From IMG/VR virus record IMGVR_UViG_2531839102_000019, positions 1 to 21,177 of that record: a stretch of DNA of 21,177 nucleotides; one strand, written 5' to 3'. This DNA comes from a virus. Its lineage: Duplodnaviria; Heunggongvirae; Uroviricota; Caudoviricetes. The stretch's first letter is position 1; each line of letters opens with the position of its first letter. Below the pieces are notes generated by a model that did not search any database, was not told the DNA's origin, and saw only the letters and a list, made by a program, of their open reading frames with translations. The translations under genes and the position numbers were made by a program. Below, piece after piece: positions 5,163-21,177 of the stretch.

Positions 5163-5347
5163 ATTGCCCGTACAGGGCAAAAACCGTAAATTATGCGTGG
5201 GTGCCTTTCGGCTGATGGCTGGAGGGTGAACCTGAAGGCCTGATGTGGAAAGGCCCCGAGTCAACTTAACGTTAACCCGAGGCCCTAACACTTCGTACCT
5301 TAAGCAAGTAGAAGGTTAGCGCCTCTCTGTAAAAGGAGTCAAGCGCT

Positions 5348-5488
5348 ATGTCGCAAAAATCGCTTATCACCGTCACAATTTGCATGACGGTTATCTTCAC
5401 CATCTGGATGTTGCACGGTTCACTGTGTGAGTTCCGGCTGAATTTGTGGGGAGCGGAGTTTGCGGCGTTCTTACAGTGTAAGCAGTAG
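5348..5488 (+). CDS. Hok/Gef-family type I toxin-like small membrane protein (46 aa)
   Basis: AAGGAG 12 nt upstream of ATG; translation MSQKSLITVTICMTVIFTIWMLHGSLCEFRLNLWGAEFAAFLQCKQ has an N-terminal transmembrane helix and the SLCE-R...G-E-AAF pattern I associate with Hok/Gef. Confidence 0.55.
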   Translation: MSQKSLITVTICMTVIFTIWMLHGSLCEFRLNLWGAEFAAFLQCKQ

Positions 5489-5497
5489 GAAAACCGC

Positions 5498-5519
5498 GAC
5501 GGGGACGAGAGTCCCCGTC
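5498..5519 (+). other. Perfect 9-bp stem-loop with GAGA loop in the 3' UTR of the Hok-like ORF
   Basis: GACGGGGAC-GAGA-GTCCCCGTC; no following U-tract, so more likely an mRNA folding/stability element than a terminator. Confidence 0.4.
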
Positions 5520-5568
5520 AACTGGTTGCTGAGGTTCAGCCGATATGGCACCCGTTTCAGGTGAGAGA

Positions 5569-5946
5569 ATGAACGATAAAATTCTCTGGTATATGCAGCG
5601 TGTTGTGAGAAATTCCCGCAACCCTGAATTTATGAATGAAGTTAAAGACGCCTGCCTTAAAAAGCAGGCGTTTTGTTTTGAGGCACCTGATGGCTTTTTG
5701 GTGCTGCGTTCTGTGCTCAGTGCTGATGGTATCCCTTATGTTCTGGTGTTGCTGGGCGTGTGTACGGGGAGTAACAGCGTTGAGCGTTACCTGCCGGAGG
5801 TGAAGACATTAACCCATCTGGCTGGCGGACGCTGGGCTGAGTTCCATACGGCAAGGCGGGGATTTATCCGGCTGGGAAAACGACTGGGCTTTGAGCGAAT
5901 GCCGGATGATGAGGATGGCTTCATGGTGTTCAGGATAGCGGTCTGA
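5569..5946 (+). CDS. Hypothetical protein (125 aa)
   Basis: ATG preceded by GGTGAGAG; ORF ends just before the terminator at 6000; no motif recognised. Confidence 0.55.
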   Translation: MNDKILWYMQRVVRNSRNPEFMNEVKDACLKKQAFCFEAPDGFLVLRSVLSADGIPYVLVLLGVCTGSNSVERYLPEVKTLTHLAGGRWAEFHTARRGFIRLGKRLGFERMPDDEDGFMVFRIAV

Positions 5947-5999
5947 CTGCTACAGTTTTCATCATTGTGTTTAAACCAACATTGTAATTCACATTCTGA

Positions 6000-6021
6000 C
6001 CCTGCTCCGGCAGGGTTTTTT
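6000..6021 (+). terminator. Rho-independent terminator
   Basis: CCCTGC-TCCG-GCAGGG followed by TTTTTT, 18 nt upstream of the next start codon. Confidence 0.7.
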
Positions 6022-6039
6022 GTTATCCAGGGGGCCATT

Positions 6040-6693
6040 ATGGGTGGAAGTAAAGGCGGTGGTGATACCAAAGTAAAACCAACAGCAGCGCAAATAGCAC
6101 AGGAAGAAGTGGCCTGGAAAGGGTGGCAGGATTACAAAAATATCCTCCGCCCGGCAGAAGATAACTTCATGGAAAAGGTCGATGACCTTAACAGTGAACA
6201 GCAGTACGAAAATATTGCTGGCACAACAAATCTTGGTTATCAGAAACAGTTTGGTGAAGCGCGGAAGGAGCTTGCGGGTAATCTTGCTCAGTCCGGCGTT
6301 GACCCATCCAGTGGTCGTTTTAATGCGGTAATGGATGCAAATCAAAGCGACCAGGTGACCGGGCAGATTGACACAACCACACGGGGGCAGGTGTCGCAGG
6401 CAGATAAATATATTGCCGGGCTACAGGATGTTGCCGCGCTCGGTTCCGGTCAGAAGGCGGATGCGTTACAGAGTTTTAACTCTCTGGCAGACAGCAGTCT
6501 GGCAAAAGCCAAATCAGATGCACAGGCGGCGTTTACGAAACAACAGGGGCGCGCCTCTCTTGTTGGCGCTGGTCTTGGCGCGGTTGGGGCTTATGCAATG
6601 CATAAGGCTGGCGGTAGCGGAAGTGGAGGCTCTAAAACGCCAGGTACCGGCGCTAACGCTATTCAGAATCGGGCTCAGAACTGGAGGCTGTAA
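6040..6693 (+). CDS. Operon gene 1: Gly/Ala/Gln-rich protein with C-terminal glycine-zipper hydrophobic segment (217 aa); putative virion-associated
   Basis: ATG at 6040 after an AGGGGG-type ribosome-binding site; the longer 5965 start would run through the terminator; C-terminus LVGAGLGAVGAYAMHKAGGSGSGG; 2-nt gap to the next gene. Confidence 0.7.
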   Translation: MGGSKGGGDTKVKPTAAQIAQEEVAWKGWQDYKNILRPAEDNFMEKVDDLNSEQQYENIAGTTNLGYQKQFGEARKELAGNLAQSGVDPSSGRFNAVMDANQSDQVTGQIDTTTRGQVSQADKYIAGLQDVAALGSGQKADALQSFNSLADSSLAKAKSDAQAAFTKQQGRASLVGAGLGAVGAYAMHKAGGSGSGGSKTPGTGANAIQNRAQNWRL

Positions 6694-6695
6694 TT

Positions 6696-7142
6696 ATGGA
6701 GTATGGCAAATACGAAACTCTCGCAAGGGCTGGTTATTCAGGCGCTGGCAGGCCATGGGGTGACTGGGAAACCTCTGCCGCGTTGACACGCCAACAATAC
6801 GACGACTGGCGCACCAGATATTTGCCTCGTATAGCAAGGCTGGCTGACCTTGGTGAGAACAACAGTCTGATGAATGCACAGCTTGCCCGGGTGGGCGGCC
6901 TTGCCACTTCCAGTCTCCGTACAGCGCAGATGGCACAGGATAACCAGATGGCGAGATACGGGGTAAACCGCCCGGATAATCCTAACAGTAACACGCTGGG
7001 TTTACGTAATGCTCTGGCAATTGCTGGCGCGAAAAATGGTATCCGTGAAGCAGAGCAGGATCGCCAGATGAACATACTGACGGGTGCTTCTGCACCTGCA
7101 AGACAGCAACTGAGTGTTGGTGGACAACTGGTGTCAGCGTAA
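6696..7142 (+). CDS. Operon gene 2: hypothetical protein (148 aa)
   Basis: Start 2 nt after the upstream stop; Ala/Arg/Gln-rich, predicted helical. Confidence 0.7.
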   Translation: MEYGKYETLARAGYSGAGRPWGDWETSAALTRQQYDDWRTRYLPRIARLADLGENNSLMNAQLARVGGLATSSLRTAQMAQDNQMARYGVNRPDNPNSNTLGLRNALAIAGAKNGIREAEQDRQMNILTGASAPARQQLSVGGQLVSA

Positions 7143-7151: not shown

Positions 7152-7403
7152 ATGGGATACGGTTTACTGGATATTGCGAATCAGTCGCGGCGTGAGGCAT
7201 TACAGGGAATAAGTGATGCCGACAGACGACGTGAAGAAATTGAGGCTGTGAACAAGCAGATGGCGGCGCAACAGAAAGCGCAGCACAAGCAGAATATCGG
7301 TACGGGAATCGGTACGGGGGCGGCTATTGGCGCATCCGTTGGTGGTCCTGTTGGCGCTGTTGCTGGTGCAGTAATTGGCGGCATTGCTGGTTCTTTGTTT
7401 TAA
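7152..7403 (+). CDS. Operon gene 3: small protein with C-terminal glycine-zipper transmembrane segment (83 aa)
   Basis: AAGGGGGA ribosome-binding site overlapping the upstream stop; C-terminus GTGIGTGAAIGASVGGPVGAVAGAVIGGIAGSLF. Confidence 0.7.
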   Translation: MGYGLLDIANQSRREALQGISDADRRREEIEAVNKQMAAQQKAQHKQNIGTGIGTGAAIGASVGGPVGAVAGAVIGGIAGSLF

Positions 7404-7413: not shown

Positions 7414-8676
7414 ATGAGCGGATTTGCACAGGGGTTACTTGCAGGATTCAGCACCGTTGACCAGGCAATGACCCGTCGTAAGGAGCTTGGTTTGCGAGAA
7501 GCACAGCTTGCTCAGCAACAGAAAAATAACGAGCGCGATTTTGAATTTGCGCAGTCTCAGTTTGAACATAATAAAGACGTTGATCAGCGGAACTTTGATT
7601 ACAGAGCCAAAGTTGATGACCGCAATTACGCACTGCAGGAAAGGGAGTTTAACGCCAATCAGAATTACCGGAATGCGTCACTGGGTATGGAGCAGCAGCG
7701 ACTCCAGTTGCAGAAATACAACCAGCGACGGCTTGAGTATAACGATATGCTGGCGCGCGATCAGCCTGTGATGGCTGCGCTTGGAAAGGCTGTGGATGCT
7801 GGTGATCGGGATGCGGCAATGCATCTTTACGGGCAGTTGTCAGAGGGTAATCCGCTGAGGCTGATGGCGAATGATGGCTATGCTGCGAAAGCGGGGCAGG
7901 CCGTGAACAACCTGCAAAAAATCTTTGATGACAAGCCGGACAGGGCGATCGCTTCACTCAATACCCCGGAAAGTCTTGATGCGCTTTCCGGCGTGTTTGC
8001 CCCGGAACTGCAACAGCGTATTGGCATGCCCGATTCAACCGGGAAAAAGACAATAAAAGAGGCCAGGATTGGCAGTATCGTACCGGCACAGCAGGAAGGG
8101 TACGTACTTATCGGCCTTGATCTCACATACAGCGATGGCTCCACCGCACATAAACCTGTAACAGAATACGGCAGTGCGCACCCTGATGATCAAACCGTGC
8201 TGGCGATACCCGTTGATAAGGCTATCGCTCAGGTCAGGGATCGCAGCAAATTTGCAGAGATATCGAAAAATTATGGTTATTTTATGCCGAAGCAGCAGGG
8301 ACTTTCTCTGAAAGAGCTTCAGAAGGAAGCCAGCAAAGTAGTGGCTCAGGCGATCAAGGATGGCCGTGATGCTCAGTCTGCGAAGGATGAGTTTTTTGCA
8401 GCGCATGATTCACAGCCGCATCAACAGAAAATTCAGCAACAGAAAACCCAACAGCTTTTACAGAAGTGGCAGACGTGGGCGGCGGGCGATCCGGTTAAAC
8501 AGGAGTTTGTAAAAGAGGCTGCCGCCAATGCGCCTGCTTTGCTGGAACCTGGTCGTGAAAAGGAGGTGGAAATTTATTACCAGAATCACCTCCGGGATAA
8601 AAAGGCAGAGCATGAAAAGGCGCTGGATTATAGCGCTTCCGCATCTGCCGATAAGATCAGAAGCTGGATAAAGTAA
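7414..8676 (+). CDS. Operon gene 4: Gln-rich coiled-coil-like protein (420 aa)
   Basis: GGAG ribosome-binding site then ATG 10 nt after the upstream stop; Q-rich tracts (HQQKIQQQKTQQLLQKWQTW); no enzymatic motif recognised. Confidence 0.75.
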   Translation: MSGFAQGLLAGFSTVDQAMTRRKELGLREAQLAQQQKNNERDFEFAQSQFEHNKDVDQRNFDYRAKVDDRNYALQEREFNANQNYRNASLGMEQQRLQLQKYNQRRLEYNDMLARDQPVMAALGKAVDAGDRDAAMHLYGQLSEGNPLRLMANDGYAAKAGQAVNNLQKIFDDKPDRAIASLNTPESLDALSGVFAPELQQRIGMPDSTGKKTIKEARIGSIVPAQQEGYVLIGLDLTYSDGSTAHKPVTEYGSAHPDDQTVLAIPVDKAIAQVRDRSKFAEISKNYGYFMPKQQGLSLKELQKEASKVVAQAIKDGRDAQSAKDEFFAAHDSQPHQQKIQQQKTQQLLQKWQTWAAGDPVKQEFVKEAAANAPALLEPGREKEVEIYYQNHLRDKKAEHEKALDYSASASADKIRSWIK

Positions 8677-8721: not shown

Positions 8722-8748
8722 GCCCGACCATCGTGTCGGGCTTTTTTT
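8722..8748 (+). terminator. Strong rho-independent terminator immediately upstream of the giant ORF
   Basis: GCCCGAC-CATCGT-GTCGGGC perfect 7-bp stem followed by TTTTTTT; only 12 nt (containing GGAG) separate it from the ATG at 8761. Confidence 0.7.
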
Positions 8749-8760
8749 ACTGGAGTCTGT

Positions 8761-11700
8761 ATGGCTTTTTCAGATGAGCAGCGCCCTGAAGCGCAATTGG
8801 GTAACCAGAACCGCAGCAGCCTGAACATTAAGCAGCCGGGAGAAAATTACTGGCAGGATTTTTTCAGCAACCCGCAGAATGCCATTGATCACAGCACATC
8901 GTTCAGCCTCGGTGATGTATTGCCAACAATGGGTAAAGGTTTCGCCCAGTCCGTCCGGGGAACAGGGGAAATGGCCCGTGGACTCGGTGATGCGATGATT
9001 CAGAGCCCGGTAAAAACAGGGGTGCGTATTTTAAATGAGTTCAGCCGTATGGGGCTGCCGGGTGTCGCAACTGTGCAGGATATTTTTGCCGGTGGCAGCA
9101 GGGGGGCTGATGAGGTCATCGATACCCTGCCTGATGGCAAAAACGCGGTTACTGATACTGTCGGTAAAGGTCTGAAGGCAACCGGTAAGGCTGTCAGTGA
9201 TGGTGCCAAAGCCACTGATGAATGGCTGACCGGTAAGATGTCGCCGGGTGCAGTTCGTGCGCTGAATACGCCGATGACCGAAGGCTATAATGATTCTGCG
9301 GTCTGGGTGGCGAAGGGTGTAAACCTGATTGGTGCGCTTGTACCTGATATGGTTGCTGGCGGTGTGGCTAGAAAGGTGGGTGATGTCACACTGCGAAAAA
9401 TGCTGACCGCCGGGCTGGAGAAAAAATACATCGCGGCAGGGATGCAGCCGGAAAGAGCCACGGCACTGGCAGCAGAAGCTGTCGATAAAAAAATGCCGGA
9501 TTTATTCCAGGCGGGCCTGATCACCCATTCCACTGTAAGTGCACAGGGGCAGAGTGCAATGGCGGCAGCAGATGCTGTTCTTAATGCTGATTACTCTGAG
9601 CTGGCGCAGTCACCGAAATTTCAGCAGACGTTTTTGTCCATTGACGCCGACCCGCAGCACGCACAGCTTACTGATCGCCAGAAAATGGATCTGGCAAAAG
9701 AGCGTGTTGCCGATGAGGTGCGCGCGCAGCTGGCAACCGATCCTGAATTGCTGGCTGTGAATGCCATGGCGGCAAAACTGGGTGACGCACAACTGTTTAA
9801 TCTGGTGACACGAGGCACAGCGAAGACCGTTAAAAGCGGCATTGTCAGAAATGCCACGGAACAGGGGGCGATTAATGCGGCGCAGGGCGGCTATTCACGC
9901 TATCAGGAAAACACGGCATTGCGTGAGACCGCCGGAATGGGGGTGTCACCGTGGGAGGGCGTGGCTGACGCAACGATCGAAGGTGCAGCCTTTGGTGCTG
10001 CGATGGGGGCTCCATTCGGTGCGGTTGCCGGATATCGTGGCAGACGTCAGGCCGCAGAAGAAACCGCCATGCGTGATGCTGAAACCGTGCAGCAGGACGA
10101 CGCAGCCCCGCAACCAGAATCTGTTGATCCGGTGGCGCAGCAGCGTGAATCCATGCAGGGCATGAATCGCGAGCAGCTTCTGGAGCAGTATGCTGATGCG
10201 GATATGGCAACAGAGGGTGACGCATCCGCAGCTCATCGCCGGGAAGCTGCCAGCCAGTTGTTGAATGAACTGGACGAACAGGCGAAGCGACAGGCTGTGA
10301 TGAATGAGCTGAAGGCGAAGCCGCGTTCTGAACTGCTTGAGGAATACCGCAGACTCAGCCAGAAAGAGGGGCGCACCGAGACTGAAGAACAACAGTTTCA
10401 GGCAATACGAGAAGTCATTCGCCCACAACAGGAAGTGACGCCGGAAGCACAGTCACAGCCTGAAAATGCGGAGGATGGTAACGGGAGCATTTACCCGACG
10501 GTGCGGTTCCGGGACCCGAATGAAGTCCGCATTGAAATTAACGGGAATGGTGCGTCCAGACCAGCGGAACGCATTGAGAAGGTGCGCCCGGACAACCGTT
10601 ATTTCACGGATGAGAAAAGCGCCATGGGGAGTGATGTTTTCCGTAATGCCGCCGCCACCGGCCTGAAACCGTCCGTAGTGAAGAAAGGCGAGAATCAGTA
10701 TGCCGTTGAAATGGATAATCCTGCGTTCTCTGAAGATGTGGCAACGGAAACCATTAACACCCTGGCTGACGGAGAGCGTATTGCTGATGCTGACCCGATG
10801 GAGCAGCCCGCGTTCATGCGTGACCCGCGATTCCGTGGTTTCACGGGGGATGATACGGAGGTACAGGCCCGCCTTGCCCGTGGCAACGCGCCGACGGCAG
10901 AGGAGCTTGTACGTTCACAGATGGCTGAAGGTGATGCCGGTCCGACAGCACAGGAGTTAACTGAGCGTCCACGCCTGCCCGCTCCCGGCGATATTCATCC
11001 CGGACAGGGATATCCGTTACCGGGAGAAGTGGCGCGTACGCCGGATGAAAATCAGGCCGGACGTGGTGGTCGTTTTACCACAACCGGTGAGGTTAAGGGC
11101 CAGAGTTTCCAGAAAGGACAAGCTCCGGCACCGGAAAACGCCGCTGGTCGCCAGGGGGAAACACTCGAGGGTGACATGGTTCGTCGTGGTCTGCCGTCAC
11201 CGGATGCGCAGAACGCGACAGCACCGGTACGTGAAGGGCTACCGGCTCCTGACATTGCGCGTAATGTTCGTATGCCTCAGCCTGAATCACTTCCCCGCAC
11301 TGTACGGGACTCACTGCCTGAGCTTGCACAGCAGGCAGAAGTACGCCGACAGGCCGGAGGAAATCGTGACATCCCGCAGCCTGAGACAATCGCACCTGAA
11401 TCTGAAACAACTGTCTCTACTGACAGGGAAGCTACCGTGCGCGGAGGTGAAGTCAGGGGCAAAAAAATTGAAGACTTTGGTGAAGAAATTAAGGGCGCGG
11501 CAAAACACCGTTATGCACAGCTTGCTGAAACACTGGGTAAAACGCTGGAAGACAGGGATTATGCCACTCAGCCGCTGAGCAAACTGTTCCCGAAACCGGA
11601 CTACGCAAAACTGGCGAACGAAGGTGCTGATGCTGATACCCTGGCAATGATAGCGCTGTATCGTAGCGATATTCCGGCGAAGACGAAACACAATACGGCA

Positions 11701-14700
11701 GGCTGGGGGGAGAGCATAAAAAAAGTACGACACAGTGTATCGGAAATGCTGAACGGAACGGTCAGCGCGAAACGCCTCGCAGAATGGATGGAAGGTAGAA
11801 TGCCCTCCCGTTACGCGGATACCTGGCAACTGTTACGCACTCTGCCACCCTCACAGATGGACAGGGCTTCTGCTTATCGGGTGGTATCGGGTGTGTATCA
11901 GGCGGCAGGAGGGAAGCGTTACGATCCGCCACAGAAACTTTATTCACTGCGCAATAAGGACAATAAGGGTAGTAACCTCTTTTTCTCGGAAAGCAGGGAT
12001 GAATTACTGACAAAGGCGAAAGTCTGGTTTGCAGAGCAGGAGGAAAAATCACAGGCGAAAGGTGATGAAAAAACAGCGCCTTCACCGGATGACAAAATCC
12101 GCTTTGACGTTTACCGGAATACCCGCAGTGGCGATATTTTTATCGCTTACGGTAAAAACAAAATGCGGGTGAGAGGTGGCTTTAAGTCAGCCAGTGATGC
12201 GCGTAAGTACATTGATTCACATCGTGATGAGCTTGTTCGTCATGTGAAGGATATGCGGGAGATTTCGCGTGAGGAGCAGCGTAACGCCACCAACCGCGAC
12301 CGTACCGGACCAGAACGCCGTAAAGGGGATGTTTCACCGGAGCAGTTCAGTGATGCGTTTGGTTTCCGTGGTGTGCAGTTTGGTAACTACGTGGAAGGTC
12401 CGCGTCGTCAGGCTGATTTGAACCGGGCTTATGACTCGCTGCATGACCTTGCGGAAGTACTGAATGTACCGACAAAAGCGCTTTCCCTGAACGGTCGTCT
12501 TGGCCTGGCATTTGGTGCCCGTGGTAAGGGTAAGGCGGCGGCACACTATGAGTCAGGTGAGGTGGCAATCAACCTGACAAAAGGTAACGGACCGGGTGCG
12601 CTGGCGCACGAATGGTTCCATTCTCTGGATAATTATTTTGGTCGTTATGACGTTTCCAATGACGGGAAAATTACGTCAGGTGGCGACTTTATGACGGAAG
12701 CACAGCGTGTCAGGCGCATATTTAAAGACGGCAGGTATGTTGATGCTGAATATCCGGTACGTCAGGAGGTTTACGACGCTTTTAAAGGTGTGATTCAGGC
12801 CATTAAAAACAGTGACATGCCGCGTCGTTCAGCGCTTCTCGATGAGGTGCGCTCAAAACCGTACTGGTCAACGGATGTTGAAATGGCGGCGCGTGCCTTT
12901 GAGCGTTATGTTCAGGATAAAGCGCGTACGGCTGGCGTGGAGAATGATTATCTGGTCAATATCCGTAAGGCACCTGAGCACAACACAGATAACACCTGGG
13001 CTTATCCGACGAATGCGGAACTGGATGGCGGTATTCGTGAGGCATTCGATCACCTGTTCCGCACCCTGAAAACCCGTGAGACGGACAAGGGCGTTGCGTT
13101 TTATTCCCGTAAGGGCGTTACCCGTACACCTGAAGGTAATCTCATTTCGGATGTTAACCGTAGTGCGGAAGCTAAAGGCAGCCCGGTCCCGCAGGTTGAA
13201 GCGGTTGCCCGTGGCGTGATGAGCGGCATTAAGGACAGTGACCTGAAGGTCCGTGTGGTGAAGTCACAGAAAGAGGCTGAAGCGCTGGCGGGCGAATCGT
13301 TCGATGGTTACGGCAGGGTGCACGCATTCTATCGTCCGGATAAACGAGAAATTGTCCTGGTGGCGGATAACATCCCTGACGGGCGGACCGTACGCGAGAA
13401 GTTGCGTCACGAGATTATCCACCATGCCATGGAGCATGTTGTCACGCCAGCGGAATATCAGACGATTATCAAAACCGTGCTGAAAACCCGCGACAGTGAT
13501 AACGCCACCATCCGTGAAGCCTGGCGTAAGGTTGATGCGTCCTATGGTAAGGAATCACCGGAAGTGCAGGCGGGTGAATTTCTGGCACATATGGCGGAGA
13601 AACAGCCGAATAAATTCGTGGCGGCATGGGAGCGTGTTGTTGCCCTGGTCAAAGGGGTACTGCGTCGTACGGGGTTACTGAAGCCGACGGAACTGAACGA
13701 TATCAGACTTGTTCGCGAGACCATCCGTACGTTAGGCCAGCGTGTGCGGGAAGGTTACACGCCGCGTGAGGATGGCGCGGACGCATCGTCTCAGTACTCC
13801 CGTAGTGGTAAACCTGATCCGTTCAAAGTGCCGGAAGGTGAGGGCGAGCGTTATCGTGATGACCTTGCCAGAATGATGAAGTCTCTGCGCTCAACGGATT
13901 TAACGGTAAACATCGGGCGTACGCCGCCGGTATTGCGTCACCTTGGCGCACCAGATTTGCCGCTGGTTATCTCCCGCGACACTGTGCGTAAGGCCACCAA
14001 TGGTGTGAAACATGTGGTGCCGATGGATGTTATCGAGAGACTACCGGAACTGATGCACGATCCGGATGCAATTTACCGTTCCGCGACAGAAAGAAACGCG
14101 GTTGTGATGCTGCTTGATGCCGTGGATAAAAATGGTGATCCGGTGGTGTCAGCGGTACACATGAAGGCTGTCCGGTCGCGCCTGGAAATCAACAAGGTGG
14201 CATCTGTTTACGGTACGGAAAACGGGAAAAAACTGAAGAGTATGGAAATGACCGGTTTAACGTTGTACCGGAGAGAAAAATTAAGCCGCGATAACCTTCT
14301 GCACAGAGGGCTCCAATTGCCCAAAGGGGAACATTCTTATCGCGGCTCTGTTGATAAAATACTCTATCCTGAAGATATTCGCAAGGGGCCGTATTACTCC
14401 CGCACCAGCAGTCTGACGCCGGAAGAGACAATTGCATCCCGTTTTGTTCGCCAGATGCAGGATAAATTCCAGGTGCTGAAGGCGGTGCAGGAGAATATCC
14501 GTAAAACTGGCGGAAAAATAGATGACAGCAATAACGCCTATATGGCTGAAGAACTCTTCCACGGGAAGGCGGAAAACGACCTGAACGTAATGAAGGAGCG
14601 CTACGTTCAGCCGCTGGCCAAATTGCTGGCGGACTACAAAATTGCGCAGGCCGATCTGGATGAGTACCTCTACGCCCGTCACGCGCCGGAACGTAACGCG

Positions 14701-17139
14701 CATATTGCGAAAATCAACCCGAAAATGCCGGACGGCGGTTCGGGGATGACCAACGCGGAAGCGGCGGAAATCATGCAGCGTGTGCGTAACAGCGGCAAAC
14801 AGGCACAGTATGACCGTCTGGCAGGGATTATTGACGATATGCTGGCCCGTCGCCGTGAGATTATCCGTGAGGCAGGACTGGAAGAGAGCGGCGTGGTGGA
14901 TGCCTGGCAGAAAGCCTACCGTTACTACGTCCCCCTGAAAGGGCAGGATGTTGACGGTGTGGTGTCACTGCCACGTACAGGCAAGGGATTCACCATCGGC
15001 GGGCGTGAAAGTAAGCAGGCCATGGGGCGTGCATCCCGCGCACAGTCTCCTTCCACTCAGGCGATACAGGATTTGAGTGAATCGCTGATCCGCAATCGCA
15101 AAAATGAAGTGGGTAACGCCTTCCTGAAACTGGTACAGGATAATCCCGACAAGGATTACTGGCAGGTATTCAGTGATGACAGACCGGATACCATGCGTGT
15201 GATTGCAGAGCGCAAGGACCAGGAAACTGGTGAAACCATTCGCGAAGTTGTCGAGCGTCCGGTGGCGATGGCAATGATGGCAGACCGGTACTTCACCACC
15301 AAAAAGAACGGCAAAACGTACTACATCAAACTCCATGATCCGCGCCTGATGCGTGCGATGAAGAATATGGGACCGGAAACCAGTAACGCAGTAATCCGTA
15401 CGCTGGGGAAAGTTAACCGCTTCCTGGCAACGGTGAACACGTCGTATAACCCGGAATTCCTGGTCAGTAACTTCATCCGTGACGTGCAGACAGCGGTGAT
15501 GAATCTGAAGGCGGAGCAGGGAAGGAGCGACGGCAAACTGAAAGGGCTGGATAACTTATCCGCACTGGCTGTGGTGAAAGACAGCCGTTCTGCTATGTCA
15601 GCCGTATACGCCAGTCTGCGTGGCAAAAACCTCACGGGCAAAGGTGCGCAGTGGCAGAAGGTGTGGAAAGAGTTTGTTGAGGACGGAGGTAAAACCGGCT
15701 GGTTTAACATGGGTGACCTTGAAGGCCAGCAGAAGGAAATGGATCGCCTTGTATCGCTGGCGAAGGGAGGATGGAAAGGCCAGAGTATCGGTGCATGGAA
15801 TTCGTTCCTGAACCTGGTCGAGGATGCCAACGGTGCGGTTGAAAACGCACTGCGTCTGTCAGCTTATAAACACGCCCGTGATGCCGGTTTGTCACGCCAG
15901 CAGGCGGCGTCTCTTGCCAAAAACATGACGGTGAACTTTAACCGTCGTGGTGAGCAGGGGGCGCTGATGAACTCGCTGTACATGTTCGCCAACGCCAGTA
16001 TTCAGGGAACGGCAAATCTGGTGAGAACGCTCGGACATCTTAATGGTGAGGGACCTTTACTGGAGCGCCTTCGCTGGAAGAATCTGAATGTTCCGCAGAA
16101 AATCGCGCTTGCCGCTGTGGGAGCAGGTTATCTGCTTGGCTCGCTTAACCGCAGTGTGGCGGGTGAGGATGATGACAGGGTTAACTGGTATGACAAAGTA
16201 CCGTCTCATGTGAAAGAGCGTAACCTCGTCATCATGAAATCGATGTTCGGGGGCAAGGCCGGTGAGTACTGGAGTATTCCTCTGCCTTACGGGTACAACG
16301 TTTTCTTCCTGCTTGGTCACACAGCCGAAGGGGTGGCGGCGGGCGACCTGACCGCTTCACGTGCTGCCGGTAATGTTGTTGGTGGTGTGCTTGGGGCATT
16401 CAGCCCGATCGGCAGTGAGACGTCGGAAACGTTGTCCGGGGCATTGCTGAAAAACGCAGCGCCAACCATTCTGCGTCCGTTTGCTAACCTTGCCATGAAC
16501 GAAAACTTCATGGGGGCGCAGATTTACCAGGAGAACATGCCGTTTGGTACACCGAAACCGGACAGCCAGCTGGGAAGACGTTCAACGCCTGAGGCGTACA
16601 AGTCCTTTGCGTCCTGGCTGAATGCGTTCTCTGGTGGCAGCCAGTACCGCTCAGGCGCGGTGGATGTCACGCCGGAATCACTGAAATACTGGATTGACTA
16701 TATCTCTGGTGGTACAGGGCGTTTTATTGCCAAATCGACGGATGCGGCGGTGAAATCGCTGAATGGTATTGATATACCGGAGCAGCAGGTGCCTTTCCTG
16801 GGGAAAATTTCAGGTGAGGTGATGCCGTATGCTGACCAGCAGAAGATGTATGACCGGATGACGGAGGTTGCGCAGTACCACGCAGAGCTGAAGAGTCTGA
16901 CCGGTGCAGAAAGAACGGCGTTCATTGACGAGAACAACGGAAAATTGTCGATGAACGGGCTTATGCAGGATACCCGGAAGAGACTGAAGGATTTGCGCAA
17001 ACAGCGCGATGCCATTTATGCCGACAGTTCTCTCAGTCTGGCGCAGCAGGCGGCGATGGTGAAATCGGTAGAGCGGGATATGAAGGTTGCCGTGGATCGC
17101 TTTAACCGCGAGTACAACAAAAAAGTGGGAGTGGAGTAA
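8761..17139 (+). CDS. Giant multi-domain protein (2,792 aa) with two zincin-like HExxH motifs; putative virion-delivered polyvalent effector
   Basis: Uninterrupted 8,379-nt frame; GGAG ribosome-binding site; HEWFH at aa 1283-1287 (nt 12607-12621) and HEIIHHAMEH at aa 1550-1559 (nt 13408-13437); Pro-rich low-complexity linker around aa 730-890; Gly/Ala-rich hydrophobic segments near both termini; no P-loop or signal peptide recognised. Confidence 0.9.
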   Translation: MAFSDEQRPEAQLGNQNRSSLNIKQPGENYWQDFFSNPQNAIDHSTSFSLGDVLPTMGKGFAQSVRGTGEMARGLGDAMIQSPVKTGVRILNEFSRMGLPGVATVQDIFAGGSRGADEVIDTLPDGKNAVTDTVGKGLKATGKAVSDGAKATDEWLTGKMSPGAVRALNTPMTEGYNDSAVWVAKGVNLIGALVPDMVAGGVARKVGDVTLRKMLTAGLEKKYIAAGMQPERATALAAEAVDKKMPDLFQAGLITHSTVSAQGQSAMAAADAVLNADYSELAQSPKFQQTFLSIDADPQHAQLTDRQKMDLAKERVADEVRAQLATDPELLAVNAMAAKLGDAQLFNLVTRGTAKTVKSGIVRNATEQGAINAAQGGYSRYQENTALRETAGMGVSPWEGVADATIEGAAFGAAMGAPFGAVAGYRGRRQAAEETAMRDAETVQQDDAAPQPESVDPVAQQRESMQGMNREQLLEQYADADMATEGDASAAHRREAASQLLNELDEQAKRQAVMNELKAKPRSELLEEYRRLSQKEGRTETEEQQFQAIREVIRPQQEVTPEAQSQPENAEDGNGSIYPTVRFRDPNEVRIEINGNGASRPAERIEKVRPDNRYFTDEKSAMGSDVFRNAAATGLKPSVVKKGENQYAVEMDNPAFSEDVATETINTLADGERIADADPMEQPAFMRDPRFRGFTGDDTEVQARLARGNAPTAEELVRSQMAEGDAGPTAQELTERPRLPAPGDIHPGQGYPLPGEVARTPDENQAGRGGRFTTTGEVKGQSFQKGQAPAPENAAGRQGETLEGDMVRRGLPSPDAQNATAPVREGLPAPDIARNVRMPQPESLPRTVRDSLPELAQQAEVRRQAGGNRDIPQPETIAPESETTVSTDREATVRGGEVRGKKIEDFGEEIKGAAKHRYAQLAETLGKTLEDRDYATQPLSKLFPKPDYAKLANEGADADTLAMIALYRSDIPAKTKHNTAGWGESIKKVRHSVSEMLNGTVSAKRLAEWMEGRMPSRYADTWQLLRTLPPSQMDRASAYRVVSGVYQAAGGKRYDPPQKLYSLRNKDNKGSNLFFSESRDELLTKAKVWFAEQEEKSQAKGDEKTAPSPDDKIRFDVYRNTRSGDIFIAYGKNKMRVRGGFKSASDARKYIDSHRDELVRHVKDMREISREEQRNATNRDRTGPERRKGDVSPEQFSDAFGFRGVQFGNYVEGPRRQADLNRAYDSLHDLAEVLNVPTKALSLNGRLGLAFGARGKGKAAAHYESGEVAINLTKGNGPGALAHEWFHSLDNYFGRYDVSNDGKITSGGDFMTEAQRVRRIFKDGRYVDAEYPVRQEVYDAFKGVIQAIKNSDMPRRSALLDEVRSKPYWSTDVEMAARAFERYVQDKARTAGVENDYLVNIRKAPEHNTDNTWAYPTNAELDGGIREAFDHLFRTLKTRETDKGVAFYSRKGVTRTPEGNLISDVNRSAEAKGSPVPQVEAVARGVMSGIKDSDLKVRVVKSQKEAEALAGESFDGYGRVHAFYRPDKREIVLVADNIPDGRTVREKLRHEIIHHAMEHVVTPAEYQTIIKTVLKTRDSDNATIREAWRKVDASYGKESPEVQAGEFLAHMAEKQPNKFVAAWERVVALVKGVLRRTGLLKPTELNDIRLVRETIRTLGQRVREGYTPREDGADASSQYSRSGKPDPFKVPEGEGERYRDDLARMMKSLRSTDLTVNIGRTPPVLRHLGAPDLPLVISRDTVRKATNGVKHVVPMDVIERLPELMHDPDAIYRSATERNAVVMLLDAVDKNGDPVVSAVHMKAVRSRLEINKVASVYGTENGKKLKSMEMTGLTLYRREKLSRDNLLHRGLQLPKGEHSYRGSVDKILYPEDIRKGPYYSRTSSLTPEETIASRFVRQMQDKFQVLKAVQENIRKTGGKIDDSNNAYMAEELFHGKAENDLNVMKERYVQPLAKLLADYKIAQADLDEYLYARHAPERNAHIAKINPKMPDGGSGMTNAEAAEIMQRVRNSGKQAQYDRLAGIIDDMLARRREIIREAGLEESGVVDAWQKAYRYYVPLKGQDVDGVVSLPRTGKGFTIGGRESKQAMGRASRAQSPSTQAIQDLSESLIRNRKNEVGNAFLKLVQDNPDKDYWQVFSDDRPDTMRVIAERKDQETGETIREVVERPVAMAMMADRYFTTKKNGKTYYIKLHDPRLMRAMKNMGPETSNAVIRTLGKVNRFLATVNTSYNPEFLVSNFIRDVQTAVMNLKAEQGRSDGKLKGLDNLSALAVVKDSRSAMSAVYASLRGKNLTGKGAQWQKVWKEFVEDGGKTGWFNMGDLEGQQKEMDRLVSLAKGGWKGQSIGAWNSFLNLVEDANGAVENALRLSAYKHARDAGLSRQQAASLAKNMTVNFNRRGEQGALMNSLYMFANASIQGTANLVRTLGHLNGEGPLLERLRWKNLNVPQKIALAAVGAGYLLGSLNRSVAGEDDDRVNWYDKVPSHVKERNLVIMKSMFGGKAGEYWSIPLPYGYNVFFLLGHTAEGVAAGDLTASRAAGNVVGGVLGAFSPIGSETSETLSGALLKNAAPTILRPFANLAMNENFMGAQIYQENMPFGTPKPDSQLGRRSTPEAYKSFASWLNAFSGGSQYRSGAVDVTPESLKYWIDYISGGTGRFIAKSTDAAVKSLNGIDIPEQQVPFLGKISGEVMPYADQQKMYDRMTEVAQYHAELKSLTGAERTAFIDENNGKLSMNGLMQDTRKRLKDLRKQRDAIYADSSLSLAQQAAMVKSVERDMKVAVDRFNREYNKKVGVE

Positions 17140-17147
17140 CAGAACAT

Positions 17148-17169
17148 GCCCCGTACGGAAGTGCGGGGC
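17148..17169. other. Stem-loop between the convergent plus and minus transcription units
   Basis: GCCCCGTAC-GGAA-GTGCGGGGC (one G:U pair); no U-tract on either strand. Confidence 0.35.
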
Positions 17170-17266
17170 TGATTAAGAAATAAACACTCATTGACCTGTA
17201 ATAACTGGAGCTATTAACATATAGTCAGAAAGAGCATTTCATGTGATACAGAGAGCCGATTTATGT

Positions 17267-17608
17267 TTAATGAAGAAAAGTTGCGCAAATGGCAGCGTAT
17301 TTGCTGAAAAAGCATGGCGGATCTATGCGTTTCATTAAGCTGAAGCAGCAACGGTAATTGCCGTGCCAATCATCAGCCCAACTGGTTAACCCTGGCGCAT
17401 CAATGCTAGGCATATAGACGCTTGCAGTGTGGTAGCCCTTATCGTTATCAATGCTGGCAACGTGCTCGCCGTTGTATGCGCTCAGCGTGTCTAGGACACT
17501 ATAAAACTTTCCTCCGGCTGCCCTGAAATCCTTTACAGCCTTCACAAGACGATTCCACGCTTTTTCCTGTTCTGGCGTCAGGTCGATTAATTCCTGCAAA
17601 GTTGCCAT
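17267..17608 (-). CDS. Hypothetical phage accessory protein (113 aa)
   Basis: ATG at 17608 with AAGGAA ribosome-binding site, 1 nt after the stop of the upstream gene; the longer 17698 start lacks a ribosome-binding site and would overlap that gene. Confidence 0.6.
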   Translation of the reverse strand: MATLQELIDLTPEQEKAWNRLVKAVKDFRAAGGKFYSVLDTLSAYNGEHVASIDNDKGYHTASVYMPSIDAPGLTSWADDWHGNYRCCFSLMKRIDPPCFFSKYAAICATFLH

Positions 17609-17609
17609 T

Positions 17610-17828
17610 TCAGTTTTCCTTATATGGGTTAATTTTATTGTGCAGTGTGTTGAACGACGCCCATACCACGTCGTTATACAACTCAATAACTGGTTCAATT
17701 ATTTTCCCGATAAACCAGACCAGTAATAGCGGGGATATTGGTATCATCAACACGATAAACAGAATGAGAAACAAAAATTCTGTCGCTCTACTTTTTCGCG
17801 GATATTTTTTTCTAAATAATGTGACCAT
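17610..17828 (-). CDS. Small predicted membrane protein (72 aa)
   Basis: Hydrophobic core FLFLILFIVLMIPISPLLLVWFIG; directly abuts the downstream gene. Confidence 0.45.
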   Translation of the reverse strand: MVTLFRKKYPRKSRATEFLFLILFIVLMIPISPLLLVWFIGKIIEPVIELYNDVVWASFNTLHNKINPYKEN

Positions 17829-17915
17829 TCATTACCGCCCTTTCGGGCGGCCTCCCGATGTTCTGAGGGTGCAGAAATCCCTCCGGTTAAGGATTAAATT
17901 AATAATATGATGTAA

Positions 17916-18104
17916 TTAATTCATGTAGTGCGAACCATACTCCCAATGATGGCTAATTATTTCGGCAGCATCTCCATAACATAAATTATCCGGTTTCATA
18001 TCTTTGTCTTGCCCGAATTTACTTTCAACAAAATCATCAATATCCTGATGCGGGGCATTGGCAGGGACTGAAATTACAGTTGTCACTATTATTGTTCGAT
18101 TCAC
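17916..18104 (-). CDS. Small hypothetical protein (about 62 aa, GTG start)
   Basis: AGGAGG 8 nt upstream of GTG at 18104, embedded in the end of the Ea22-like gene; weak support. Confidence 0.4.
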   Translation of the reverse strand: MNRTIIVTTVISVPANAPHQDIDDFVESKFGQDKDMKPDNLCYGDAAEIISHHWEYGSHYMN

Positions 18105-18108
18105 TTTC

Positions 18109-18945
18109 TCACCCTCCTTTGATGCGAATGCCAGCAACACGTAGTGCATGTTCTAAGTCAGCCAGATAAAGCCAGCAGCCATTTTCTTTAGGTATCATGA
18201 CGTGGCGCTCATCATCATTTATCGGATGTCCATATCGAAGGCCGTAGCGAGTCGGCAAATGAACTTCCCGCGTTTCCAGCTCTTTAACGCGTTCCTCCAG
18301 TTCGTAGACCCTGCATTGTTCTCTATCATCAATCAGATATAACCCAAGACATTCGCTTTCTACCCAACCGCCAAAATCATGATCGTAACGCTCACATGAA
18401 AACTCACCGTCACCGTCCTTTGTTGGAATGGTGTAACTATCTAATGGGCCACCATATGTCGGCACATTTCCCAATGTTGGATGCTCAATCCACATGAAAA
18501 ATGTACGTCCGGTTATTGGGCAAATATCTGGCCGCCATTGGTTACGAACAGCCTTGGTTTCGGATAATTCTTCAGCGTGTTGTTTTACTTCCTCAAGCTC
18601 AACACGCAGCTTCCTAACCGTAAGAGCAATTTCCTCGTTCACCTGGTCGCGGCTTTTGATGTATTGCTGGTTTCTTTCCCGTTCATCCAGCAGTGCCAGC
18701 ACGGTAGCCGGATTGGCTGCGGCGATGAATTCAGCATTGGCCTGCTGTTCCATTTGGAAATCTTCATCGAAACCGCTTTCAGGATGTGCTCCTTCAATTC
18801 TGCAAATGGGAATATATCCAGCAGCCTCGCGATGAATTAGTGCATCATCACCATCAAATCGGTTCTCTCCATATTCGAGCGACCACTCACCACGCGTTGC
18901 TTTTTCTGCCTTTTCACGCAGTACCTGATAGTTAATCTCGCTCAT
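18109..18945 (-). CDS. Ead/Ea22-like phage protein
   Basis: N-terminus MSEINYQVLREKAEKATRGEW and internal LLDERERNQQYIKSRDQ match the lambda Ea22 family signature as I recall it; GGAG ribosome-binding site upstream of ATG at 18945. Confidence 0.85.
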   Translation of the reverse strand: MSEINYQVLREKAEKATRGEWSLEYGENRFDGDDALIHREAAGYIPICRIEGAHPESGFDEDFQMEQQANAEFIAAANPATVLALLDERERNQQYIKSRDQVNEEIALTVRKLRVELEEVKQHAEELSETKAVRNQWRPDICPITGRTFFMWIEHPTLGNVPTYGGPLDSYTIPTKDGDGEFSCERYDHDFGGWVESECLGLYLIDDREQCRVYELEERVKELETREVHLPTRYGLRYGHPINDDERHVMIPKENGCWLYLADLEHALRVAGIRIKGG

Positions 18946-19216
18946 TTTTCTCTTCGCTCCGGTATACAAGAATTACAACGTCACCTCTGCTAATTACGCG
19001 AGCTGGATCTCCTGGCTCCATGCTGTCAATCCCGAAGGCTTCGGAAAACGCATTCATTGCCTTCTGGCGTTGATCCTGCTTACGGCATTTATTCCATTTT
19101 TTCAGTAACAACAGCGATAGCCACCGCCCGGCGCAGAACATAATGTAAAAATAACCAAGAAGCGCCAGACCTGTGTTGAGGGTCGTATCGATCGTTATAG
19201 TGGTGTCTATGCTCAC
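18932..19216 (-). CDS. Small hypothetical membrane protein (94 aa)
   Basis: Transmembrane segment LALLGYFYIMFCAGRWLSLLLL; start overlaps the upstream stop by 4 nt and its end overlaps the Ea22-like start. Confidence 0.6.
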   Translation of the reverse strand: MSIDTTITIDTTLNTGLALLGYFYIMFCAGRWLSLLLLKKWNKCRKQDQRQKAMNAFSEAFGIDSMEPGDPARVISRGDVVILVYRSEEKNERD

Positions 19217-19434
19217 TTCACACCTCTCTGTTTGTTGATAAGTTCAATATCCTGCTGGCAACTGGCGCAAGTTCGGCATCCGCGAACAGCCTGGCGTCGC
19301 CGCTCATCTATCGGATCGCCACACTCGCAACAATGAGTAGCAGATGGGGCATTACTATCGGATTTGTATTTTTGCAGGGAGAGATTGCGCTGCAATTCTT
19401 CGATTTCAGCGGCGTTGTCGATGATATCTGCCAT
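19213..19434 (-). CDS. TraR/DksA-family C4 zinc-finger protein
   Basis: CxxC...CxxC in CECGDPIDERRRQAVRGCRTCASCQ; 73 aa; this family is common in lambdoid early operons. Confidence 0.8.
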   Translation of the reverse strand: MADIIDNAAEIEELQRNLSLQKYKSDSNAPSATHCCECGDPIDERRRQAVRGCRTCASCQQDIELINKQRGVK

Positions 19435-19454
19435 TTTCCTTTCCTTCAGGCATG

Positions 19455-19477
19455 AAAAAAGGAGCCGAAGCTCCTTT
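19455..19477 (-). terminator. Intrinsic terminator on the minus strand between the antirepressor-like and TraR-like genes
   Basis: On the minus strand: GGAGC-UUCG-GCUCC hairpin flanked by A3/U3 extension and followed by a U-run; about 20 nt upstream of the TraR-like start. Confidence 0.5.
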
Positions 19478-19481
19478 GGTT

Positions 19482-20111
19482 TCAGAATTCAAATTGTCTT
19501 GCTCTTAGTTGCGCCAGCATACTTCTGGCCCTATGCACCATATAGTTGGCGGGATCAAGTTTTGCTGCTTCGCGGAGCAATGTGTCGCGAGTCCGGTTGG
19601 TTATATGACGAGTTTCGTAGGTCAGATCAAACAGCTTTCCATAGTAATCAGAGTTCAGTTCTCTCATGACGGGGTATAGCTGTTTACTGAGTTGTTGTGC
19701 TTTTTCCATCCAGAGCTGCATGTAGCAAAGGAGGATGATTTCCTCGTCTGTGAATTGTTGCTGTGGTTCTGCTTGTGCCGACTGCATGTTGCGAAGTTTC
19801 TTTTCGCACTCGATGAAGTATCTGCGTATCTGTCGGCCTTTTTCGTTACGCTCTACCATCGCCGTTTCTTTGGCTGTATCGAGGGTAAGGTGGTAGTCTT
19901 TTTTCCCTCGCCCATAACCTATTTCCCGTTTCTGGGAAATAGCTATATAGTCCTGATTTTCAACGAATCCGTACTCTTCAATACGTTCTGTAATCCACGA
20001 TGCAAAGCGTTTACCTACTCCAAGAAAAGTATGTAAATCACGGGCATTAACGAGAAGAGTGGTTTCGTTGGCGATAGTGCCGTTGAATACGGGGATGAGT
20101 TGACTGGTCAT
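19482..20111 (-). CDS. Phage antirepressor-like protein (AntA/AntB-type N-terminal domain)
   Basis: N-terminus LIPVFNGT...VNARDLHTFLGVGKRFASWITERIEEYGFVENQDY fits the AntA-type pattern; AAGGAGG ribosome-binding site upstream of ATG at 20111. Confidence 0.7.
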   Translation of the reverse strand: MTSQLIPVFNGTIANETTLLVNARDLHTFLGVGKRFASWITERIEEYGFVENQDYIAISQKREIGYGRGKKDYHLTLDTAKETAMVERNEKGRQIRRYFIECEKKLRNMQSAQAEPQQQFTDEEIILLCYMQLWMEKAQQLSKQLYPVMRELNSDYYGKLFDLTYETRHITNRTRDTLLREAAKLDPANYMVHRARSMLAQLRARQFEF

Positions 20112-20139
20112 GATGACCTCCTTATTTGTTTAGTTTATA

Positions 20140-20162
20140 ACCGCCAGTTAGTAGCTGGCGGT
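20140..20162. promoter_or_regulatory. Perfect 8-bp inverted repeat in the antirepressor leader (candidate operator or leader hairpin)
   Basis: ACCGCCAG-TTAGTAG-CTGGCGGT, 29 nt upstream of the antirepressor start on the minus strand; a TTGACA hexamer lies just upstream on that strand. Confidence 0.35.
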
Positions 20163-20406
20163 CGGGTGTCAACTGAGCCAAATAAGAAGCTCTGGGCATA
20201 TTCCCCTTGCGGGTGTTGTATTACGCCTCTCCACCCGACCTTTGTACGGATGTAACTATGCCAAATTGCAGGCATAAAAAAGCCGCAAAGCTATCGGGTG
20301 CGGAGACCGCTTATTTGTTCAGTGCGGTCAGTATGCGATAGCTCTGGAGGATTTGTCAATCAGCGGAATATTGATGAACGGGTAACGGTAAATGCCTCAT
20401 CCAGAA

Positions 20407-20443
20407 AATTAACGCAAATTCGCATCGCAAACTTGCGTTAATT
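20407..20443. repeat. 11-bp inverted repeat with 15-nt spacer in the attR-proximal phage arm
   Basis: AATTAACGCAA ... TTGCGTTAATT. Confidence 0.45.
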
Positions 20444-20476
20444 ATCTGAAATATCAAGTTAAATCCCCTTAAATGT

Positions 20477-20526
20477 TTGGGGCACTATTGGGGCAAAATG
20501 TGGTTGTTTGGGGCATATTTGGGGCA
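20477..20526 (+). repeat. Four direct copies of TTGGGGCA (candidate integrase arm-type or Xis binding sites)
   Basis: Copies start at 20477, 20488, 20508 and 20519 (spacing 11, 20, 11 bp), about 120-170 bp from the phage/host junction. Confidence 0.5.
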
Positions 20527-20635
20527 AAAAAGAACGTATAAAGAACGGTGTAAAATTGATTTCTTCATGGTCAAAATGAGGTGTAACAGATTGAAAAATA
20601 TATGCTCTTGGACGATCTTCGGTAATTCTGTGTTT

Positions 20636-20698
20636 TTAATGCTTCATGGTTTCAATATGTCCGTACATGGAATAATAAAGCACCAGAACTTTAGCCAT
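20636..20698 (-). pseudogene. wrbA: Truncated 5' end of wrbA, interrupted by prophage insertion
   Basis: Minus-strand translation [18 protein letters not shown] matches the WrbA N-terminus I recall ([22 protein letters not shown]...) for 18 codons, then diverges (K-H-stop). Confidence 0.8.
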
Positions 20699-21069: not shown

Positions 21070-21177
21070 ATGGCAAACCATCGAGGCGGTTCCGGCAATT
21101 TTGCAGAAGACCGCGAAAGAGCATCAGAAGCAGGTAAAAAAGGTGGCAAGAGCAGTCACGGCAAAAGCGACAACTAG
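21070..21177 (+). CDS. ymdF: KGG-motif general stress protein, YmdF/YciG family (35 aa)
   Basis: GGAGG 6 nt upstream of ATG; translation MANHRGGSGNFAEDRERASEAGKKGGKSSHGKSDN; stop codon is the last 3 nt of the window. Confidence 0.7.
   Translation: MANHRGGSGNFAEDRERASEAGKKGGKSSHGKSDN

Follow-up and report, generated by a model that had tools for sequence, protein, structure and literature searches.

A 2,792-residue protein of Shiga toxin podophages as a probable polyvalent internal virion protein with two predicted zincin-like domains

The window analyzed here is a 21,177-nucleotide stretch of tailed-phage DNA (Caudoviricetes; positions 1 to 21,177 of IMG/VR record IMGVR_UViG_2531839102_000019), in which one open reading frame (ORF) of 2,792 residues runs from an ATG at 8761 to 17139 on the plus strand, the strand of every feature of this giant ORF given below. 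We consider it likely that the ORF, an orthologue of phi24B gp47 and VT2-Sakai H0150, encodes the giant polyvalent internal virion protein of Shiga toxin (Stx) podophages of the 933W/Sp5/phi24B type (Traversvirus). An original prediction, made by a model from the nucleotide sequence without database searches, had proposed a late-expressed, virion-packaged protein of the polyvalent kind, and this proposal agrees with the position of the gene at the end of the late operon and with the rank of its phi24B orthologue, second by count of peptide-spectrum matches (PSMs) in virions. The multi-domain character it assumed was recovered as a set of polyvalent-protein domains; a ribonuclease (RNase)-like PBECR domain and a conserved C-terminal module of ∼900 residues had been overlooked.

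The elements of this reading are already known: the CLCA_X family dates from 2013 (PMC3650047) and the polyvalent class from 2017 (PMC5512222), and association with virions was described in 2026 (bioRxiv 10.64898/2026.04.10.717836). The refinements added here are a second zincin domain, the placement of LPD5 and LPD1 as flanks of a single CLCA_X-type domain, the finding that the predicted PBECR catalytic residues are intact together with a corrected "MuF-C metallopeptidase" label, the full extent, spread, and absence of structural relatives of the C-terminal module, and a free-standing two-zincin homologue on a conjugative element. Taken together they turn a vague annotation into specific testable mutants. 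The gene makes up ∼13% of the genome in phages that spread Shiga toxin, and its product is among their most abundant virion proteins. It is a good experimental target in a medically important group.

The giant gene and its product in virions

The frame is uninterrupted, as originally described, and the span 8761-17139 holds no other long ORF. Along its whole length the gene matches 186 phage records at 90-99% nucleotide identity, all of them Stx phages or related Traversvirus (Sepvirinae), and PHROG 616 covers it end to end. The top matches are "PPwrbA" prophages integrated at wrbA (98.1-98.5% identity), and the RefSeq product name of the gene is "LPD5 domain-containing protein"; the original prediction's link to an ORF of 933W-type Stx phages integrated at wrbA was correct, with the host ymdF/rutG genes lying downstream. 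The orthologues in phi24B (gp47), 933W, VT2-Sakai (H0150), PA2, and Stx2a_F451 are the same gene, likewise placed last in the late operon, and they differ by few amino acids, concentrated in the first 100 codons. The giant ORF closes the virion block, following the tail, nozzle, and other virion genes; polyvalent proteins are encoded among the late or virion genes of phages or the transfer genes of conjugative elements. In the annotated phi24B genome the orthologue ends the rightward late operon that begins at the Q-dependent late promoter, and the giant ORF is the final gene of the Q-antiterminated late operon.

Comparison with the Stx2a_F451 orthologue gives a ratio of nonsynonymous to synonymous substitution (dN/dS) of 0.11 for the whole gene and 0.045-0.2 within the zincin and PBECR domains, indicative of purifying selection. 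Of 54 amino acid differences between the two proteins, 17 sit in codons 1-100 (8761-9060). The synonymous distance is 0.40 over codons 1-100, ∼0.004 over codons 101-900, 0.04-0.22 in the segments after codon ∼900, and 0.22 over codons 1881-2792; because it differs so widely among segments, the gene is a recombination mosaic, probably with breakpoints inside it. The 2,792 residues include no cysteine, which is unusual at such a size.

The virion data come from mass spectrometry of purified phi24B virions, in which the orthologue is listed as gp47 (vb_24B_48; supplement of bioRxiv 10.64898/2026.04.10.717836). gp47 accounts for 10,962 PSMs, behind the major capsid protein only. It is richest in the uppermost four slices of the gel, which lie above the 80-kDa portal, with a tail of smaller species below (bioRxiv 10.64898/2026.04.10.717836). 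In the part of the supplement drawn on here, gp47 peptides at frame residues 92-2441 have ∼80-103 PSMs each and come from all regions; these counts are pooled over gel slices, such that they show the presence of all regions and cannot report processing. Because all regions give similar counts and the top slices are richest, gp47 is packaged whole, mostly as very large species. From batch-sample PSMs, length-normalized to 12 portal or 535 capsid-protein copies, we arrive at a rough estimate of ∼20-35 copies per virion. The protein is invisible in the phi24B cryo-electron microscopy (cryo-EM) map, and the authors propose that it is an ejection protein; they list its LPD and MuF-C domains, without the two HExxH domains (bioRxiv 10.64898/2026.04.10.717836). 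JC1 gp69, a relative of the Bcep22 type, is a virion protein by mass spectrometry. In a knock-down screen of coliphage PTXU04, efficient infection depended on an LPD38 protein although the host was a laboratory strain.

Domain architecture of the giant protein

We scanned the protein against Pfam at the gathering cutoffs, looking for methyltransferase and helicase domains to E 1. Four polyvalent-protein domains lie far above threshold: LPD5, LPD1, MuF_C, and LPD38. When the entire protein sequence was compared with PDB chains, only noise was returned (E ≥ 0.7). Readings of the ORF as a tape measure, an RNA polymerase, or an adhesin, which the original prediction had named as alternatives to be searched for, were rejected, since no such family is present among the Pfam, PHROGs, and NCBIfam matches.

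The middle module (aa ∼900-1680, 11461-13800) has the order LPD5, zincin 1, LPD1, zincin 2. Pfam LPD5 spans aa 1050-1199 (11908-12357; E 5.6e-45, 153.6 bits against a cutoff of 27). Zincin domain 1, of CLCA_X type, spans aa 1181-1436 (12301-13068) and holds the motif HEWFH (aa 1283-1287, 12607-12621), followed by D1290; Pfam LPD1, with a conserved EMAARAFE helix, spans aa 1360-1439 (12838-13077). Zincin domain 2 (aa ∼1480-1650, 13198-13710) is covered by no Pfam or NCBIfam model and holds HEIIH (aa 1550-1554, 13408-13422), the start of HEIIHHAMEH (aa 1550-1559). Both motifs stand exactly where they had first been noticed, and both are kept in distant homologues. Two HExxH motifs are present against 0.035 expected by chance from the protein composition, and neither lies inside a Pfam match.

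A search with aa 1151-1680 finds hundreds of relatives at 34-50% identity, many of which are proteins of ∼870 residues with two HExxH motifs ∼233 residues apart. Conservation was counted in an alignment of 35 sequences that are 33-48% identical to this region. In domain 1, each of H1262, H1283, E1284, W1285, H1287, D1290, E1374, R1378, and E1381 occurs in 34 or all of the 35 sequences, with a motif of HEWFH type in 34/34 aligned sequences. In domain 2, H1550, E1551, and H1554 are present in 34/35, and HEIIH is invariant in 12/12 sequences of another set; H1521 is found in 27/34, and a downstream Glu is also conserved, either E1601 (29/33) or E1606, on which two alignments disagree. Conservation of the motifs among homologues, an outcome on which the original prediction had made itself depend, is thus seen for both, and its suggestion of one or two metallopeptidase-like modules resolves into two conserved domains that are predicted, from sequence, to be zincin-like.

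Candidates for the third zinc ligand of domain 1 are D1290, E1374, and E1381, all chosen by sequence conservation; the EMAARAFE helix within LPD1 may supply this ligand. In domain 2 the candidates are E1601 and E1606. In the AlphaFold model, which has a mean predicted local distance difference test score (pLDDT) of 74.8, with ∼90 near the first HExxH and ∼80 near the second, both motifs lie in predicted helices, and both regions have a core of β-sheet and helix like that of solved zincins. CLCA_X is a predicted zincin family, found mostly in phages and plasmids, whose founding member has 260 residues (Lenart et al. 2013, PMC3650047). The NCBIfam CLCA_X profile (NF041907) aligns 243 of its 250 positions to aa 1181-1436 with E 2.3e-43, and the shared pattern is HExxH followed by a conserved Asp. 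Because of this alignment, LPD1 and the end of LPD5 can be seen to flank one zincin that has no Pfam core model. A His at the end of strand 2 together with an Asp three residues past HExxH marks a widespread phage-type peptidase clade (PMC5512222), and zincin 1 has both. We assign zincin 1, as a predicted domain, to the relatives of CLCA_X, outside its short stand-alone subfamily; unlike stand-alone CLCA_X proteins, it is embedded in a protein of 2,792 residues and is followed by a second, diverged zincin.

When the domain 1 and domain 2 profiles are aligned with hhalign (E 3.1e-5), their strand-2 His residues and their HExxH motifs fall into register, and domain 2 can therefore be described as a diverged second zincin copy. 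When the zincin 2 profile was searched against PDB chains nothing significant was found, with an IrrE-type zincin only at E 2.3. The same LPD5/zincin/LPD1/zincin order occurs in a free-standing homologue of 874 residues (P0076, L003 10001-12625), whose neighbors in a conjugative element are TraG, TrbL, an M23 peptidase, TnpV, a group II intron reverse transcriptase, and a MobA/MobL relaxase. This placement indicates that the two-zincin module is common to phage-borne and conjugation-borne proteins.

Next along the protein is the PBECR/MuF_C domain (aa 1681-1875, 13801-14385). Pfam MuF_C (PF18819) matches aa 1749-1838 with 64.2 bits against a cutoff of 27.6, and 1,820 relatives of the PBECR region were found. 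MuF_C is equivalent to PBECR, a predicted RNase of the BECR fold with a His in the first helix and a Ser or Thr in strand 4 (PMC5512222, section 19). In 143 relatives the catalytic columns are 99% His and 96% Ser plus 3% Thr, and the giant ORF has H1751 and S1815 at these positions. Its PBECR domain is, by prediction, RNase-like with the presumptive catalytic His and Ser intact, and the "metallopeptidase" label given to MuF-C in the phi24B preprint appears to be a mislabel.

The remainder of the protein is a conserved C-terminal module (aa ∼1890-2792, 14428-17136), mostly helical with one β-domain. Pfam LPD38 (PF18857) matches aa 2475-2680 (16183-16800; E 2e-48, 165.4 bits against a cutoff of 27, positions 2-189 of 189), and the ∼900 C-terminal residues are conserved as a unit that extends well past this ∼190-residue family. 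Relatives of the module that are 35-76% identical carry other N-terminal cargo, including ART-PolyVal, methyltransferase, InPase, and LPD3 domains. With tblastn the module is found in 356 phage records, among them phages of Vibrio, Ralstonia GP4-like and Burkholderia Bcep22-like phages, Bacillus megaterium podophages, and a Methanosarcina virus. Annotations were examined for the Methanosarcina virus and one Bacillus podophage, and in both the module stands at the C-terminus of a giant ORF. The ORF of the Methanosarcina virus MetMV (L007 2557-11565) has 3,002 residues and matches the module at 28.6% identity over 92%, an unexpected reach beyond bacterial phages. The model of the module has a pLDDT of 81 and a predicted template modeling score of 0.77 and is mostly helical; structure comparison with this model yielded no real structural relative. 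No other part of the giant protein is shared as widely as the C-terminal module, which is common to giant ORFs of the virion block in many phage groups.

The N-terminal region has a much narrower distribution, as homologues of the first ∼1,050 residues are confined to Escherichia and Salmonella. It begins with a Gly/Ala-rich domain (aa 1-440, 8761-10080), hypervariable in its first 100 codons, that includes the glycine zipper GAAFGAAMGAPFGAVAG (aa 408-424, 9982-10032) with five Gly at i+4 spacing; the zipper is kept in Salmonella homologues that are 57% identical overall. The Gly/Ala-rich hydrophobic stretches reported near both termini are present at aa 179-207, 404-424, and 2444-2466. Confident transmembrane helices were rejected in a hydropathy scan (Kyte-Doolittle maximum 1.38). 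By composition, aa 441-900 (10081-11460) form a long, disordered, acidic, Pro-rich, low-complexity linker, and the part of the phi24B supplement drawn on here includes a virion peptide from this region, GFTGDDTEVQAR. The Pro-rich acidic stretch at aa ∼700-900 takes in nt 10960-11420, where low complexity had been noted correctly; the "imperfect tandem units" described there are a compositional resemblance only, as true tandem units were rejected when Tandem Repeats Finder gave no DNA-level repeat. The absences that had been noted also hold for the giant protein: no P-loop was found with the pattern GxxxxGK[ST], no RHS or filamentous-haemagglutinin repeat family is among the Pfam matches, and there is no signal peptide.

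Proposed mechanism and competing explanations

The closest match to a known class is with the polyvalent proteins (Iyer et al. 2017, PMC5512222), with which the giant protein shares its giant multi-domain build, location among virion genes, zincin hub, PBECR domain, and LPD domains. These families, LPD included, were defined for phages and conjugative elements, with LPD38 specific to the phage type (PMC5512222). That work is a computational classification that gave no function to LPD5, LPD1, or LPD38, and our map differs from it in that LPD1 and the end of LPD5 belong to one zincin and LPD38 is a 190-residue piece of a module of ∼900 residues.

The N4 virion RNA polymerase gp50 is alike in layout: its N-terminus is possibly membrane-active, it has a long flexible linker, enzymatic cargo, and an HExxH domain, and its C-terminal part is large, helical, and without known structural relatives. 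This polymerase, too, is carried in the T=9 head of a podovirus, from which it is ejected, and virion maps do not show it. The giant ORF differs in having no RNA polymerase domain (no polymerase family in Pfam). Between zincin 2 and the HExxH segment of N4 C1 there is a weak local match of 32 columns (E 0.0045, probability 8%). Bcep22 gp75 and JC1 gp69 share the C-terminal module at 27% identity over 85% of its length; in these phages, too, the giant protein ends the virion gene block and is detected in virions by mass spectrometry, and the portal and capsid proteins resemble those of 933W. Both proteins differ in their size of ∼4,500 residues and in a DarB-like annotation that implies cargo absent from the giant ORF (Pfam). 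T7 gp14/15/16 and P22 gp7/20/16 likewise lie inside podovirus heads and exit by way of the tail, but they are three separate smaller proteins, and no similarity of sequence or fold was found. T7 gp16 carries a transglycosylase domain; no cell-wall hydrolase domain of this type was found in the Pfam scan or among the fold matches of the C-terminal module.

With these systems in mind, we propose that tens of copies of the giant protein would be packed whole into the T=9 head by means of the C-terminal module, which may be the packaging or ejection part of the protein. Once the needle is released, the protein would exit via the tail, either before the DNA or along with it, and its glycine-zipper N-terminus may engage the envelope. 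The ejected zincins would then cut the polyprotein and possibly host proteins, and the modules released in this way, the RNase-like one among them, would act early in infection. Autoprocessing has been proposed for the peptidases of polyvalent proteins by Iyer et al. (PMC5512222). As a tentative extension that we regard as possible, though not probable, the C-terminal module could be an unrecognized carrier of new fold for the packaging and ejection of interchangeable enzymatic cargo in head-tail viruses of Proteobacteria, Bacillus, and even Methanosarcina, and the Stx cargo a self-cleaving array in which two zincins release an active RNase after ejection into the newly infected E. coli cell. 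If the zincins and RNase-like domain are active after ejection, the protein would be an injected effector package shaping the first minutes of infection, and with it the lysogenic conversion of new E. coli strains. A C-terminal module that does act as a packaging and ejection signal could serve to load foreign proteins into phage heads.

Several observations weigh against this picture. The packaging role suggested for the C-terminal module comes from its distribution and from analogy with the N4 virion RNA polymerase, and hhalign of the module against N4 C2 detects no homology (probability 0.2%). Enzymatic activity, zinc binding, cleavage sites, and ejection are predictions for the giant protein and its close relatives. 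Virion gp47 is mainly very large, such that processing before ejection is at most partial, and its smaller pieces could reflect decay in a sample stored for six months. At 148.5 bits, the match of zincin 1 to CLCA_X does not reach the whole-protein cutoff of 260 (NF041907), and the hydrophobic patches are too weak for a transmembrane-helix call.

The phi24B preprint offers another account, in which gp47 is a conduit for ejection across the periplasm whose metallopeptidase degrades peptidoglycan to reach the inner membrane. Abundance in virions combined with invisibility by cryo-EM is what would be expected of such an internal protein, podophages need ejected proteins to span the envelope, the giant protein has a glycine zipper and other Gly-rich hydrophobic patches, and the PTXU04 LPD38 protein is required even in a laboratory host. 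We nevertheless find this account rather doubtful. The metallopeptidase it invokes is MuF-C, which is RNase-like and of the BECR fold according to its defining paper (PMC5512222), and the actual HExxH domains belong to the CLCA_X/polyvalent-protein peptidase group and to no known cell-wall peptidase family; lysozyme, transglycosylase, M23, and NlpC domains are absent in the Pfam scan of the giant ORF. Furthermore, the two-zincin module also stands alone on a conjugative element in which an M23 peptidase is separately encoded, and the hosts of the Bacillus phages and the Methanosarcina virus that share the C-terminal module do not have a periplasm of the Gram-negative type. It is the peptidoglycan-protease part alone that conflicts with a polyvalent internal virion protein; the conduit part is compatible with it.

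It seems improbable to us that the protein is a structural head filler or inner body that occupies volume, organizes DNA, or sets pressure, with its enzyme-like motifs as relics. A copy number of ∼20-35 per virion would suit such a role, as would the absence of cysteines and the long disordered stretches, and phi24B packs 57.7 kb into its T=9 head compared with 70.2 kb in T=9 N4, leaving room for several megadaltons of protein. However, the predicted catalytic residues of the zincins and PBECR are 96-100% conserved in very distant relatives, these domains are under purifying selection (dN/dS 0.045-0.2), and the varied enzymatic cargo of related chassis proteins would be difficult to account for if the protein were inert.

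Still less credence can be given to a DarB-like antirestriction protein, injected to act against type I restriction through methylation or helicase action. The label has a source, as aa 2350-2680 match phrog_10089 ("DarB-like antirestriction") and the relatives in Bcep22/JC1 and Ralstonia phages, which are virion proteins, are so labeled. Because the match is limited to the shared C-terminal LPD38 module, the label stems from cargo domains that the giant ORF lacks, and the identity was rejected on the absence of the methyltransferase and helicase domains of P1 DarB-type proteins (Pfam, E up to 1) and of a P-loop.

Upstream signals and neighboring genes

An intrinsic-terminator-like hairpin with a run of T (8722-8748) separates the giant ORF from the virion gene that precedes it. 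The hairpin, GCCCGAC-CATCGT-GTCGGGC at 8722-8741, has a G+C-rich stem of 7 bp and a loop of 6 nt, and is followed by seven T (8742-8748) that end 12 nt ahead of the ATG at 8761; a ribosome-binding site, GGAG (8752-8755), stands 5 nt 5′ of the ATG. Both the strong terminator and the ribosome-binding site had been recognized in the original prediction. The sequence GGAGTCTGTATG at the ribosome-binding site is the same in F451, in which the stem is retained via a compensatory change (GAC/GTC to GGC/GCC) and the sequence 5′ of the hairpin is unrelated. This compensatory change suggests that the hairpin structure is under selection and functional. No promoter-like site was found near the start of the giant ORF. 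We envisage that Q-modified RNA polymerase would read through the hairpin, which likely insulates the giant gene from moron transcription in lysogens. That the gene instead encodes a toxin or superinfection-exclusion factor expressed from the prophage and acting in the lysogen, as the neighboring moron-type genes at the end of the prophage (lom and one resembling hok) and the co-option of polyvalent proteins by hosts envisaged by Iyer et al. (PMC5512222) might suggest, is scarcely credible given this conserved terminator, the lack of a nearby promoter-like site and of a signal peptide, and the abundance of the orthologue in virions.

The four ORFs directly 5′ of the giant ORF (5965-6693, 6696-7142, 7152-7403, and 7414-8676) have no Pfam family above the gathering cutoff, and together with it they may form a block of internal or ejection proteins. 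The phi24B supplement records virion PSMs for genes just upstream: 523 for gp51, 129 for gp50, and 1,634 for gp48. In the batch sample gp48 has more PSMs than the portal; the preprint labels it "Transcription factor?" and its text is silent on these genes. The ORF at 7152-7403 encodes an 83-residue glycine-zipper membrane peptide (Pfam Gly-zipper_YMGG, E 8e-6, below cutoff), and the "bacteriocin" label of its relatives probably reflects only Gly-zipper composition. Farther upstream, the 567-residue ORF at 406-2109 belongs to the PHROGs family "internal virion protein" (phrog_511) and corresponds, by gene order only, to the 579-residue "gp57 nozzle" of phi24B; 2106-3374 corresponds, again by gene order only, to "gp56 CTF" (central needle fibre). 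At ∼5300-5700 relatives annotate a MokW/hok-like host-killing gene (L001 6597-6737), and several strong hairpins on both strands at 5497-5671 are as expected of a type I toxin-antitoxin locus.

The stretch 3′ of the giant ORF (17140-21177) carries early-type phage genes on the minus strand: DUF4014, broken ead/Ea22-like genes, DUF4752, TraR/DksA, and the antirepressor Ant. Beyond the phage genes lie the host ymdF/rutG. This region is a decayed remnant of a second prophage between the end of the Stx-type prophage and the wrbA-ymdF-rut locus, and the whole 4-kb arrangement is found in 4 of 5,426 complete E. coli genomes.

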